Positions 8,772 through 63,789 of a DNA stretch of 64,000 nt are shown here, piece after piece; within the stretch, counting starts at the first letter, position 1, and every line of letters starts with the position of its first letter. The position numbers were made by a program, and so were the translations under genes. The notes beneath the pieces are model-generated. The model was not told the origin of the DNA. It saw only the letters and a list, made by a program, of their open reading frames with translations, and made no database searches. The stretch lies in IMG/VR virus record IMGVR_UViG_3300032167_005013; one strand, 5' to 3'. This stretch comes from a virus (taxonomy: Duplodnaviria; Heunggongvirae; Uroviricota; Caudoviricetes).

Positions 8772-9242
8772 ATGAATAAGAATTTTGAAAATCTAACAAA
8801 GGATGAACTTCTAACACTCCGTAAGGACATTGTGTTAAATTCAATATTTATTCACGATTATGAGAATAGTTTTGGCTTTGATTCTCATAAGGTATCAGTT
8901 TTCTTTGATAGTTTTGTGGAATATATCTGCGAACTTGCTGAGGAAAATGGTGTAAAGGACTTTGAAAGGATACTTAAAGAATATGACACTATCGACAACC
9001 TTTGGTCTTGGTTTAATTGTTATGACGATTTATCGTGGATGACATTTGCCAATGGCTTTAGAATTGGGGATAAAGTTAAGTGGGAGGACTCGGGACTTGA
9101 TGACTTTGATTTCAACGAAAGAGAAAGTCAGAAAGAAAGAGTGTATAAAATTATTGGAGTATTGAACGATGAAATGTTCCTTATTTCGGATGAATATGGA
9201 GAATCCGAGGTGTTTGCTGATGAACTGATAAAAGTGGCATAG
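8772..9242 (+). CDS. hypothetical cassette gene
   Basis: Start reassigned to the ATG after the box at 8720. Confidence 0.7.
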   Translation: MNKNFENLTKDELLTLRKDIVLNSIFIHDYENSFGFDSHKVSVFFDSFVEYICELAEENGVKDFERILKEYDTIDNLWSWFNCYDDLSWMTFANGFRIGDKVKWEDSGLDDFDFNERESQKERVYKIIGVLNDEMFLISDEYGESEVFADELIKVA

Positions 9243-10005: not shown

Positions 10006-10166
10006 AGTAAATATCCCTGCCCTGAGAAGCATATGCAGAGGTAGAATAAGCGGTTGACCGTAATTAAGTCCGTGTAAAGTAACTCAAAGGAGCGGAGGGC
10101 AGGGTTTTTTAATACTTTGGCATAGTCTTTGCAGTATAGTAAAGTACAATCAAATACCGACACGAT

Positions 10167-10700: not shown

Positions 10701-10784
10701 GGTACTCGAAAGAGTACCTTTCAGAAACGACTTTGGCATATTTATTGCATATATAACAACTGAATAACTAAAACAAACATCACT

Positions 10785-11723
10785 ATGGCAAGCAAAAACA
10801 CAAATCTTCATTCAGCAAAGAAAGCGAAAAATGATGAATTCTATACTCAACTTACTGACATTGAGAAAGAAATGAGACATTATAAGGATTTCTTTAGAGG
10901 AAAGGTTGTGTATTGCAACTGCGATGATGCAAGGGAATCCAATTTCTTCAAGTATTTCTCCCTTAACTTTGAACATCTTGGACTGAAGAAACTCATTACC
11001 ACAGGTTATAAGGAAAGTGGAAAGGGTGTTGTCCTTATCTATGAGGGAGACAAGAATGGCAATAGAATCGTTGAAGATTCAGAGATTATCGTAAGAGAAC
11101 TTGAGGGCAACGGAGACTTCCGTTCAGCAGAGTGTATCGAGTTCCTTAAAGAATCTGATGTTGTTGTTACAAATCCGCCATTCAGTCTATTCCGTGAGTA
11201 TGTTGCTCAACTTATGGAGTATGGAAAGAAATTCATTATTATAGGTAATGGCAATGCTGTAACCTATAAAGAGATTTTCCCTTATATCAAGAACAACGAA
11301 CTTTGGTTGGGGGCAAGTAAAGGTATTGGTGGTAAGTTTACATTTATTGTTCCCGAAAGTTATGAGGGTAAATTTGTTTCTGTTGAAAATGGTGTTAGGA
11401 TTGGACAAGTGAATAATGCTTGTTGGTTTACTAACATTCCCCATACAAAAAGAAATACTCCACTTGATTTGTATCGTAGGTACTCAAAAGAGGACTATCC
11501 TAAGTACGATAATTATAATGCGATTGATAGTACGACATCTGAAATTCCTATGGACTATGACGGAGTTATTGGTGTTCCAATCACATTCCTTGACAAATAT
11601 TGCCCTACTCAGTTTGAAATAATTGGGCTTGATAGATATGTTGAGGATAATCCTCGTTATGGACATCGTTTCCATATAAATGGGAAAGAAACTTATGCAA
11701 GAATTTTAATTCGCAGAAGATAA
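10785..11723 (+). CDS. adenine-specific DNA methyltransferase, EcoRI family
   Basis: AKNDEFYT, VVYCNCDD, GDFRSAEC, VTNPPFSLFREY, WFTN, YDNYNAI, GVPITFLDKY. Confidence 0.9.
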   Translation: MASKNTNLHSAKKAKNDEFYTQLTDIEKEMRHYKDFFRGKVVYCNCDDARESNFFKYFSLNFEHLGLKKLITTGYKESGKGVVLIYEGDKNGNRIVEDSEIIVRELEGNGDFRSAECIEFLKESDVVVTNPPFSLFREYVAQLMEYGKKFIIIGNGNAVTYKEIFPYIKNNELWLGASKGIGGKFTFIVPESYEGKFVSVENGVRIGQVNNACWFTNIPHTKRNTPLDLYRRYSKEDYPKYDNYNAIDSTTSEIPMDYDGVIGVPITFLDKYCPTQFEIIGLDRYVEDNPRYGHRFHINGKETYARILIRRR

Positions 11724-11823
11724 TTTTTTCCTAATAAGAATTCTAAAATACGGACATTTTCCATTGATAGATAAATCCTTATCATCGTCTCCTTTACGAA
11801 ATTTGATTATTTCAAACTGAGTA
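11606..11823. mobile_element. Putative invertible segment bounded by 18-bp perfect inverted repeats, carrying an alternative MTase C-terminus
   Basis: tactcagtttgaaataat at 11606-11623 and its reverse complement at 11806-11823. The minus strand (11822->11706) reads TQFEIIKFRKGDDDKDLSINGKCPYFRILIRKKLSSAN*. Confidence 0.8.
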
Positions 11824-11908
11824 TATTAGACACTTAAGAATCTTTTAAGGTTTAATGGGTTTGGCATGGACTTTGCATCATGTTGTAATGTAACCAATCA
11901 ACATTGAT

Positions 11909-12211
11909 ATGAACAAACAAATCGAATACTATTCAGTTTGCAGTTGTGGGGCAATCACATTGTTTTTCACTGACGGCACATCAAATTCCTGCAAGAGAAA
12001 AAACCTTAAGAAGTTTGGAATAAGCCTTAAGGGTATAAAGAAACAAAAGGAGAATACTTGGTGTTGCAATCATTGCGTAAATCACTATGGCATAGATATA
12101 TGTTCATGTGGCAGTGGAGAGGAGTATGAGAAGTGTTGTGGTACTCCAATGGAAACACTTGGTGTTCAGTACGATGGTTTTAGTCAAATCCTTAAAAACT
12201 TTGCACGATGA
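11909..12211 (+). CDS. Cys-rich protein with a SEC-C-like motif
   Basis: CSCGSGEEYEKCC; box at 11860. Confidence 0.65.
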   Translation: MNKQIEYYSVCSCGAITLFFTDGTSNSCKRKNLKKFGISLKGIKKQKENTWCCNHCVNHYGIDICSCGSGEEYEKCCGTPMETLGVQYDGFSQILKNFAR

Positions 12212-12615: not shown

Positions 12616-12668
12616 GTTTGGCACAGACTTTGCAGTAAGATAGAACTGAAACATAAAAGGAAATAACC

Positions 12669-13772
12669 ATGAAAATCGAACTAAAACAGATTCCTATTTC
12701 GGCAATCGCACTTGACTATAAGGACAACAACGATGATGGTGTTGTCGGCTATGGTGGAAACCTCAACATCCGTCCGCCTTATCAGAGAGAGTTTGTATAT
12801 AAGGACAAACAGAGGGATGCAGTCATTGACACGATTATGCGTGGATTCCCTCTCAATGTAATGTATTGGGCAAAGAACGAGGATGGGACATATGAAGTGC
12901 TTGACGGGCAACAGAGGACAATTTCATTCTGTCAGTATGTGAATGGAGATTTCTCAATTAACGAAAGGTATTTCGGTAATCTTACTGACTATGAGCAGGA
13001 GCAGATTATGAACTATAAGGTAATGGTTTATATCTGTGAGGGCAACGACAAGGAACGACTTGATTGGTTTAGGACAATCAATATCGCAGGGGAGAAACTG
13101 ACTGACCAAGAACTCCTTAACATCAATTACACGGGTGCTTGGTTATCACACGCAAAGCGACTTTTCTCTAAAACGGCTTGCAATGCTGAGAAGATTGGCA
13201 AGGACTATATCAAGGGAACTGCAATTAGGCAGGAAATTCTTGAACTTGCATTATCTTGGATTTCCGGTGGAAAGGATAATATCGCAGGATATATGGCTGA
13301 ACATCAGCACGATTCAAACGCCAACGAACTTTGGTTGCATTTCAGCAAGGTAATCGAATGGGTAAAATGCACATTCCCGATTTACCGAAAAGAAATGAAA
13401 GGTCTTGAATGGGGCAGGCTTTATGCTGAGTATGGCAATGAAAGTTATGACATTGAGGAAATGGAGAGGGAGATAAATCGGCTTATGGCAGATGAAGATG
13501 TTACCGCAAAGAAAGGTGTATATGAATATGTGCTATCAAGAGGAGAGAAAGAGAAATGTTTATCTGTAAGAGTATTTTCAGAAAAGGACAAGCGAACGGC
13601 TTATGAACAACAGAAAGGTGTTTGTCCAATTTGCGGAGAACATTTCGAGTTTGAAAATATGCAGGGCGACCACATTGTAGAATGGTCAGCAGGTGGAAGA
13701 ACGACATTAAGTAACTTGCAGATGGTTTGTCATGGTTGCCATAAGAAACTGACTAATAAGATTTATTCGTAG
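12669..13772 (+). CDS. DUF262 (ParB-like) + HNH endonuclease (GmrSD-like)
   Basis: IRPPYQREFVY, VLDGQQR, FRTIN..G..L, C-terminal CPIC..GDHIVEWSAGG..NLQMVCHGCH. Confidence 0.88.
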   Translation: MKIELKQIPISAIALDYKDNNDDGVVGYGGNLNIRPPYQREFVYKDKQRDAVIDTIMRGFPLNVMYWAKNEDGTYEVLDGQQRTISFCQYVNGDFSINERYFGNLTDYEQEQIMNYKVMVYICEGNDKERLDWFRTINIAGEKLTDQELLNINYTGAWLSHAKRLFSKTACNAEKIGKDYIKGTAIRQEILELALSWISGGKDNIAGYMAEHQHDSNANELWLHFSKVIEWVKCTFPIYRKEMKGLEWGRLYAEYGNESYDIEEMEREINRLMADEDVTAKKGVYEYVLSRGEKEKCLSVRVFSEKDKRTAYEQQKGVCPICGEHFEFENMQGDHIVEWSAGGRTTLSNLQMVCHGCHKKLTNKIYS

Positions 13773-62589: not shown

Positions 62590-63789
62590 TTAGAAGGCAT
62601 TGCCTCGGTCATCCACAGTTAGGTTCTCCATAAGCGTATATTCGGTGCTACGGACACCTATTATTCTTTCTCCCTCTAATAAGATATTCATCGCTGCATT
62701 TATATCCCTGTCATGATGTTCGCCACATTGTGGACATGTCCATTCCCTGTCACTTAACTTCAAATCATGTTTCTTATATCCACAAACTGAACATGTTTTA
62801 CTGCTTGGATAGAATCTATCAACAAATATTACTTGTTTTCCGTTATTGAATGCTTTATCAACAAGTATTGATTTAAATCTATAAAATCCTACTTCTTGTA
62901 TCGCTTTCGCTAACTTATGATTCTTTAACATTCCACTAACATTTAAGTCTTCCATGAAGATTACATCATAATATATAAGCAATTCATTTACTACACTATG
63001 AATATAATTCTCTTTCTGATTGTTTAACTTCTCAAATGCCTTTGCAAGTTTGATTCTTGCTTTATTTCTGTTATTAGAACCTTTTTGTTTCTTTGATAAT
63101 TGATGTTGGAGTTTTGCTATCTTCTGTTCTTGTAATTTATAGAAATGTTTATTTTCAAACACTTCACCATCACTTGTAATTACAAAATCTTTAACTCCTA
63201 AGTCAATACCAACATGTTCATCAGTTAATTTGAATTTAACAACTTCTTCATTTGGTAACTCAATTAAGATAGATAAGAAGAAATTACCACTCTTGGTTTT
63301 CGATAAGGTAGCACTTCTTATTCCATCACGATATTGTCTGAGTCTGTTGTGATTCAAATCAGAACATCTGAAACGAATATCTTTTAAAGGTTGTGTCAAC
63401 GTTATTTTTCTTGTTTCAAATGTATTCTTCTTTGAAATCGCTTCAAGTGGGAATAACGCTGACTGTTTATCTTTTTTACTTTTGAATTTTGGGAAACCAT
63501 TATGTTGTTTAAAGAACTTCTCATAAGCAGATAGCATCTGCCTTATTGACTGTTTCATTATCTTTGTGTTTTCTTCTTTCAACCATGAGTATTGTTCATC
63601 CTTCAATAGTTCATTATGAAAATACTTTGATAAATCAGTTAAACCTAATGATTTCTTATTTTCAGTATATTCTTGTTGTTTACGAGCAAGTGTTTGATTA
63701 TAAACAAAACGGTAACACCCCAATACTTTATTCAGTTTCAGTTCTTGCTCCTTATTTGGATATAATCTTATTTTAATTGCTCTTAACAT
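62590..63789 (-). mobile_element. tnpB: Solo TnpB (IS200/IS605/IS607 family RNA-guided nuclease)
   Basis: KIRLYPNKEQ HTH, GIDLGVKD (RuvC-I), MEDLNV (II), PSSKTCSVCG..CPQCG..DRDINAA (Zn/III); no tnpA immediately adjacent. Confidence 0.9.

Follow-up and report, generated by a model that had tools for sequence, protein, structure and literature searches.

A putative two-state inversion switch at the 3' end of an adenine methyltransferase gene in a jumbo phage

The locus that we studied lies in a 64,000-nt stretch of phage DNA, hereafter the window, and is centered on an ORF of the plus strand (positions 10785–11723) that encodes a protein of 312 amino acids. Compared with the Pfam model PF13651 (EcoRI_methylase), this protein gave a match with an E value of 2e-120 and 402 bits—the cut-off being 26.4—over profile positions 1–344 of 345, so that its original assignment to the EcoRI-family methyltransferases held over the whole model. 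The NPPF motif IV (N130-P131-P132-F133) was, moreover, invariant in 63 relatives. By family membership, the protein is an EcoRI_methylase and a predicted N6-adenine DNA methyltransferase.

The 3' end of this gene is occupied by the features listed in Table 1. A repeat search of the window returned an 18/18 perfect inverted repeat with 182 nt between the arms, of which the left one lies in frame inside the ORF at the codons for TQFEII, both circumstances being as the original prediction had them. In the whole 64 kb this was the one inverted repeat of at least 18 nt with its arms within 400 nt of each other, and a third copy of the 18-nt arm was absent from the window when up to 3 mismatches were allowed. 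Short as the repeat is, 100 first-order Markov resamples of the window yielded 0 repeats of this kind, which result speaks against a chance occurrence. The two tails that the repeat brackets are convergent: Tail A ends the expressed protein; Tail B, read from 11805 down to 11706, is in frame with the right arm and has the same family ending as Tail A, though having neither a start codon nor an upstream frame of its own, since a stop lies 2 codons upstream. We could thus confirm that the methyltransferase locus consists of two convergent, overlapping C-terminal cassettes and that a flip creates an in-frame alternative end, exchanging the last ~30 amino acids of the methyltransferase; the translations of both tails, the frame of the alternative end after the flip, and the ending shared by the two, all of which had been predicted, were reproduced exactly.

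Table 1. Positions, within the window, of the features at the methyltransferase locus
Feature	Position	Strand	Basis or remark
Sigma54-type (-24/-12) box before the methyltransferase gene	10734..10749	+	Member of the TGGCA-N7-TTGCA repeat families D1/D2; sequence only
Residues 1-274 of the methyltransferase, constant and not part of the invertible segment	10785..11605	+	PF13651 match
Left arm	11606..11623	+	Within codons (P)TQFEII; presumed crossover site
Invertible segment, 182 nt	11624..11805	.	Equivalent 204-nt segment known both ways round: L105/L106 vs L107
Tail A, expressed C-terminal cassette, GLDRY type, 32 aa + stop	11624..11723	+	Translation; type found among relatives
Convergent overlap of the tails, 18 nt	11706..11723	.	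Last codons of each tail are the antisense of the other's
Tail B, silent stored C-terminal cassette, KFRKG type, 32 aa + stop	11706..11805	-	Translation from the right arm
Right arm	11806..11823	-	In run X7, contigs break at both arms
GmrSD_N (DUF262) + HNH nuclease gene	12669..13772	+	Pfam PF03235, PF01844, PF14279

The window is part of an IMG/VR virus record of 80,750 nt with a CheckV completeness of 23%. Contigs as long as 349,824 nt carry an identical methyltransferase, and contigs of 344–353 kb carry its relatives, which lengths lead us to regard the carrier as a jumbo phage; by blastn, the GenBank phages gave distant partial matches only, and the public runs holding the phage are recorded as animal feces and gut metagenomes. 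The two ends of the record (G000, positions 1–293 and 80458–80750, both outside the window) form an inverted repeat of each other, perfect over 127 nt and 86% identical over 296 nt; IMG/VR classes the record under inverted terminal repeats at a completeness of 23%, which combination makes a true genome end doubtful, and these ends are probably not one. In the surroundings of the methyltransferase gene, between positions 9235 and 13859 of the window, boxes of the form TGGCA-N7-TTGCA, whose spacing is of the sigma54 -24/-12 type, stand before nearly every small gene and in the orientation of that gene (for example at 10118–10133, 10734–10749, 11862–11877, and 12619–12634), and make up the direct-repeat families D1–D3. 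Directly downstream of the segment, an ORF of the plus strand (11909–12211) encodes a cysteine-rich protein of 100 amino acids with a weak SEC-C match (E 3e-4), which protein is conserved in the related loci L097 and L098.

We compared the locus with 14 viral and 80 metagenomic loci encoding relatives of the methyltransferase, together with loci reached through database proteins, and restricted the count of repeats to the 76 loci with at least 300 nt of downstream sequence. An inverted repeat of 14–23 nt, situated at the same codons—(P)T-Q-F-x-I-(I/V)—and bracketing a second convergent tail, was present in 20 of those 76; and in all 20 the silent tail was intact and ended in the family motif. 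The sequence of the arms differed between loci and was identical within each locus. Among the arm codons that encode the same residue, 94 of 97 were the identical codon, as against 64 of 110 in the same tails' C-terminal motif, which is just as conserved (Fisher p 4e-12), from which disparity we conclude that the arms are kept identical at the DNA level, beyond the needs of the protein. The tails also overlapped at their stops, by 4–34 nt, in every related two-tail locus; which overlap explains the endings of the type '..LSSAN' in 13 of the 120 closest database proteins, those residues being encoded by the antisense of the partner's '..LIRRR-stop'. On the strength of this comparison, the two-tail repeat layout appears as a family trait and not as the result of chance.

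About 41 tail families were found on a body that is 75–100% conserved, the tail being the only hypervariable part of the enzyme; and at least 11 of those families are known in both the expressed and the silent, inverted state. The type of Tail A is expressed in 44 relatives and is silent and inverted in others, such as L003 and L048, while that of Tail B is expressed in L004, L006, L041, L046, L058, and L097. The expressed tail of the last of these (protein P0052) has 100% amino-acid identity to Tail B, so that the predicted identity of the silent antisense reading as a genuine C-terminus of the family is borne out by relatives that express it. Over the variable part, the uncorrected pN/pS was 0.18 between silent tails, 0.21 between silent and expressed tails, and 0.18 between expressed tails; the absolute values are rough, because the synonymous sites are near saturation, and the informative result is the equality of the three classes. 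These ratios indicate that purifying selection at the protein level acts equally on the stored and the expressed cassettes.

In related genomes both orientations were found. The proteins P0069 and P0092, encoded on the contigs L105 and L107, have bodies that are 100% identical and tails that are unrelated. Two runs whose accession numbers are close supplied those contigs, and a third run supplied L106, which agrees with L105. The gene order is common to L105 and L107, the upstream sequence is 97.8–99.0% identical, and the downstream sequence is 100% identical over 2412 nt; between those flanks, a stretch of 244 nt (two arms of 20 nt enclosing 204 nt) is 100% identical in L105/L106 and in L107, but reversed. 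A mis-orientation during assembly cannot account for this reversal, because the assembler worked with 31-mers, longer than the 20-nt arms, and either orientation thus requires junction-spanning reads. L105/L106 and L107 therefore represent one and the same phage, differing by an exact inversion of the segment between the repeats, and inversion takes place in the family. A less clean case was furnished by L097/L098, where flanks 85–95% identical to the window surround a cassette B whose DNA is 96% identical and whose orientation relative to the flanks is opposite, that cassette being paired with a silent one other than the Tail A of the window. The proteins P0074 and P0119, with bodies 96.7% identical and different tails, were also considered as a flip pair and rejected, since their genomic contexts differ. 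The idea that the repeat arose by chance, or that the arrangement is an artefact of assembly, retains practically no probability: the same architecture recurs in independent assemblies from many studies, and the presence of the layout at 20 loci and the flip between L105 and L107 refute that explanation.

For the phage of the window itself, the evidence consists of the assembled contigs of public runs as placed on the locus. In each of the runs X3, X8, and X10 one contig extended across the locus in the orientation of the window; contigs, however, drop minor variants and are hence silent with respect to rare flipped molecules. The run X7 was different in that one contig ended at 11635, a 230-nt contig spanned 11606–11835, and the next contig started at 11806; while a further contig, of 42 nt and with a depth of 4 (its neighbors having about 16), placed 30 nt on 11806–11835 and 12 nt elsewhere, and one record of the run fitted two places of the window. 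The length of 42 nt is exactly that of a unitig crossing an 18-nt repeat between two otherwise shared paths, and the breaks in this run are those expected of a 31-mer graph if a minor flipped form is present. By size and placement, then, the 42-nt contig fits the flipped right junction, which junction could equally be produced by fold-back priming at the inverted repeat; the second flipped junction was absent from run X7. The exact methyltransferase with Tail A was found in all 24 contigs examined and is listed in 40 blocks of the collection, and the protein collection contained no protein combining the body encoded in the window with Tail B. The predicted phase variation thus stands on an exact flip in the relatives (L105/L106 versus L107), and for the phage of the window the corresponding observation is that single minor contig of 42 nt. 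We consider it very likely that the inversion occurs in this phage as well, and that the switch is intact and probably active there at a low level.

An opposite reading of those same observations would be that the arrangement is a frozen relic in the phage of the window: the inversions and cassette exchanges of the family would then be rare accidents of general recombination between co-infecting phages, with no switching on ecological time scales. Such a history would be in keeping with the single orientation of every assembled copy of this phage and with the lack of a linked invertase, and the reshuffling of bodies and tails among the relatives could be produced by general recombination, too. 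Rare accidents, however, would not be expected to leave 20 out of 20 silent cassettes intact and under a purifying selection as strong as that on the expressed ones, nor to keep the arms identical at synonymous sites; and to those findings are to be added the exact, otherwise change-free flip between near-identical genomes from runs with close accession numbers and the minor contig at the flipped junction in X7. We accordingly regard a relic as quite improbable.

The agent of the flip was sought in the neighborhood of the gene. As originally predicted, there is no recombinase among the neighboring genes, and the comparison of 95 loci revealed none at a distance of up to 2.5 kb; nor was any flanking gene family within that distance enriched in the loci with the repeat. 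The only gene of the record with a resolvase domain lies about 52 kb from the switch. That gene encodes a TnpA of 205 amino acids with a MerR-type HTH plus the resolvase domain, and is located just past the end of the window (G000:C1:11266–11883), next to a TnpB/OrfB_IS605 gene of 399 amino acids on the minus strand (window 62590–63789), which pair constitutes an IS607-like element. We considered the resolvase-domain gene as the invertase and rejected it, since its position directly before TnpB marks it as part of that element and since other phages bearing the switch are without it. In a relative of 344 kb that carries the switch and whose genome is 93% complete (the record of L003), the families Resolvase, Phage_integrase, and Recombinase gave no match, so that neither a serine nor a tyrosine recombinase was found; a weak RecA-like gene was present. 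Three kinds of agent may be proposed on those grounds. An unlinked site-specific recombinase, of either the host or the phage, has in our estimation nearly an even chance, and such an enzyme acting in trans is favored by the tight and consistent boundaries of the arms. Homologous recombination by the phage on short homology is quite possible, and is favored by the nearly complete genome without a gene of the former type and by the recombination-rich life style of the large lytic phages. Template switching during replication is a candidate that we hold to be improbable.

The position of the variable piece within the protein was examined on AlphaFold models, which had a pLDDT of 86 for the enzyme of the window and of 84 for P0052, the protein with Tail B. 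The predicted Rossmann core comprises residues from about 18 to 219. The model aligned to the cores of M.TaqI, METTL5, and KsgA at Z values of 9.4–10.3, and the catalytic domain of M.TaqI (residues 21–233) aligned to residues 19–226 of the model with a Z of 9.7; because that catalytic domain ends at residue 226 of the model, and the core near 219, residues 220–312 would form an additional C-terminal domain. In both models the variable piece lay between the last two strands (277–282 and 306–311 in the enzyme of the window), with a lower local pLDDT of about 70. An assignment of that piece to the loop of the β6–β7 hairpin of the Rossmann core was rejected, since the structural alignments end the core near residue 219. 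A sequence search of the PDB with the methyltransferase gave no match, and Foldseek returned weak matches to Rossmann folds only, among which no solved structure placed the variable piece on DNA.

In the gamma-class adenine methyltransferases the target-recognition domain is placed outside the Rossmann core, on the C-terminal side. The target of M.EcoRI is GAATTC. That of M.BanLI is RTCAGG (PMC3990576), so that members of the EcoRI family differ in their known targets. Across the family the variable piece is small, of 18–60 amino acids. In some relatives the gene is split, the last ~60 amino acids being encoded as separate small ORFs, sometimes as two different ones in tandem (L002, L102), which arrangement shows the C-terminal module to be a separable unit. 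Thus, in L102 (851–2441) and L103 (546–2136) an HNH_3 homing-endonuclease gene splits the methyltransferase gene shortly before the junction codons, leaving an N-terminal piece of 283 amino acids with an acidic end and a C-terminal piece of 61 amino acids with a basic start and a tail of the GLDRY type. In L002 (3001–5260), which shares its contig with L035, a full-length methyltransferase precedes a partial copy and two small ORFs that have the same orientation; each of these ORFs codes for a different C-terminal piece with a basic start, a conserved GVPITF stretch, and a tail of its own; this arrangement may represent a version of the switch in which several tails are present simultaneously.

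A further element to be weighed is the DUF262-HNH gene, which is situated 0.95 kb downstream of the methyltransferase gene with two genes between, and which neighbors the methyltransferase in 65 of 95 loci, both with and without the repeat. In P0086 and P0088 an HNH module is fused to the C-terminus of the methyltransferase. As judged from this proximity, the nuclease is a possible functional partner of the methyltransferase, in a pair of the restriction-modification type.

We think it moderately likely that the exchanged tail changes the target specificity of the enzyme. A different role would be that the switch is real, but that the tail, instead of setting the specificity, tunes the activity, docks a partner such as the DUF262-HNH nuclease, or varies a surface that is seen by an inhibitor or an abortive-infection sensor of the host. 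The shortness of the tail and the moderate confidence of its model would agree with such a role, as would the absence of a structural match that puts the tail on DNA, the frequent proximity of an HNH nuclease module, and the fusion of that module, in P0086 and P0088, at this very C-terminus. Yet the tail, as the sole hypervariable part of an enzyme otherwise 75–100% conserved, with about 41 types, displays the pattern expected of a target-recognition module, and it occupies the position of the target-recognition domain in the gamma-class enzymes; the switch, moreover, is equally frequent with and without a nuclease neighbor (12/16 versus 53/79). A function of the tail other than specificity therefore seems unlikely to us.

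The reading that we prefer, and to which we assign a fair probability, is that the adenine methyltransferase gene of this jumbo phage contains at its 3' end a two-state inversion switch, in which the tail would act as a small target-recognition module and the flip would change the methylated motif. Residues 1–280 would remain constant, while recombination between the 18-nt arms would flip the 182-nt segment, so that the frame would then run into the cassette of the KFRKG type instead of that of the GLDRY type; and the segment would be self-contained, because the cassettes overlap tail to tail. The piece exchanged (residues about 283–305 plus the end) would belong to the C-terminal domain outside the Rossmann core and serve there as the putative target-recognition module. 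With the methylated motif thus changed, a part of each phage population would be protected in advance against a different restriction system of the host; or, as an alternative, the flip might retarget a methylase-nuclease pair belonging to the phage itself. Only tentatively would we extend this scheme to virulent jumbo phages that infect bacteria of the gut and rumen, in which a minimal switch—arms of 15–23 nt, a segment of about 200 nt, and no linked recombinase—would swap a target-recognition module of 20–60 amino acids, so that bursts would hold differently methylated sub-populations.

These phages can probably vary the manner in which their own DNA is marked. If the tail sets the target motif, the switch would constitute a new form of anti-restriction bet-hedging, would affect the reading of phage host range and of phage methylomes in metagenomes, and would provide, for the engineering of methyltransferase specificity, a small and naturally occurring collection of recognition modules that can be exchanged on one scaffold; the roughly 41 natural modules on a single conserved scaffold would amount to a ready-made specificity library. 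The system would then be a phage-side counterpart of the phase-variable restriction systems of bacteria, and might retarget the pair formed by the methylase and the DUF262-HNH nuclease. Since no invertase is linked to the switch, even where the genome is nearly complete, the further question arises of what flips repeats of 15–23 nt in a lytic phage.

Phase-variable methyltransferases are a well-known bacterial strategy, and inversion switches of phages are known for tail fibers; in full-text searches of the literature we found no description of an inversion switch that rewrites a phage methyltransferase. Among the classical examples, inversion of the Mu G segment by Gin and of the P1 C segment by Cin switches the tail fiber and thereby the host range. 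Both of those segments are, like the present one, borne by a phage, leave a constant N-terminal part of the protein outside, combine an inverted repeat located within the coding sequence with two alternative C-terminal parts that converge, and allow bet-hedging within the phage population. They differ in that the protein is a tail fiber and the segment measures about 3 kb, whereas here the protein is a DNA methyltransferase, the segment 182 nt, and the arms 18 nt; and in that no gin-like invertase is adjacent here or detectable in the 93%-complete relative. With respect to the R64 shufflon, in which Rci-mediated inversion likewise selects among alternative C-termini of one protein, the label of 'mini-shufflon' in the original prediction was too strong: a shufflon has several segments, several repeats, more than two alternatives, and the linked Rci, whereas in the window the site occurs twice, its two arms bounding a single segment that holds two cassettes, and no recombinase is linked to it. 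Despite having no dedicated recombinase adjacent to it in any of the 95 loci, the locus probably works like an invertase-linked switch.

The multispecific C5 methyltransferases of the Bacillus phages SPR, phi3T, and rho11s join a constant catalytic core to small interchangeable target-recognizing modules, which they deploy against several host restriction systems. In those enzymes several modules stand in tandem and all are used at once, whereas here one out of two would be chosen by the inversion of DNA; the split-gene relatives with several C-terminal pieces, as in L002, may resemble that simultaneous version.

As to the bacterial side, programmed inversions that alter genes have been described in the Type I hsdS, in the PglX of BREX, in Eco57I-like Type IIG enzymes, and in the DrmMI of DISARM (Milman et al., 2023, PMC9881135), in all of which a DNA-modification enzyme has the C-terminal part that determines its specificity exchanged by inversion between short repeats. 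Those systems serve chromosomal defense, usually have a recombinase nearby, and exchange cassettes of large domains (PMC9881135), whereas here the carriers are apparently virulent jumbo phages, the enzyme is a small Type II-like one of PF13651, and the cassettes measure 18–60 amino acids; the EcoRI-family methylases are absent from the text of that article (PMC9881135). By analogy, the layout may be described as a miniature Mu G segment whose logic would be like that of the bacterial hsdS, PglX, and Type IIG inversions, and which is set apart by the lack of a linked recombinase, by the tiny cassettes and arms, by the small Type II-like enzyme of the EcoRI family, and by the phage setting.
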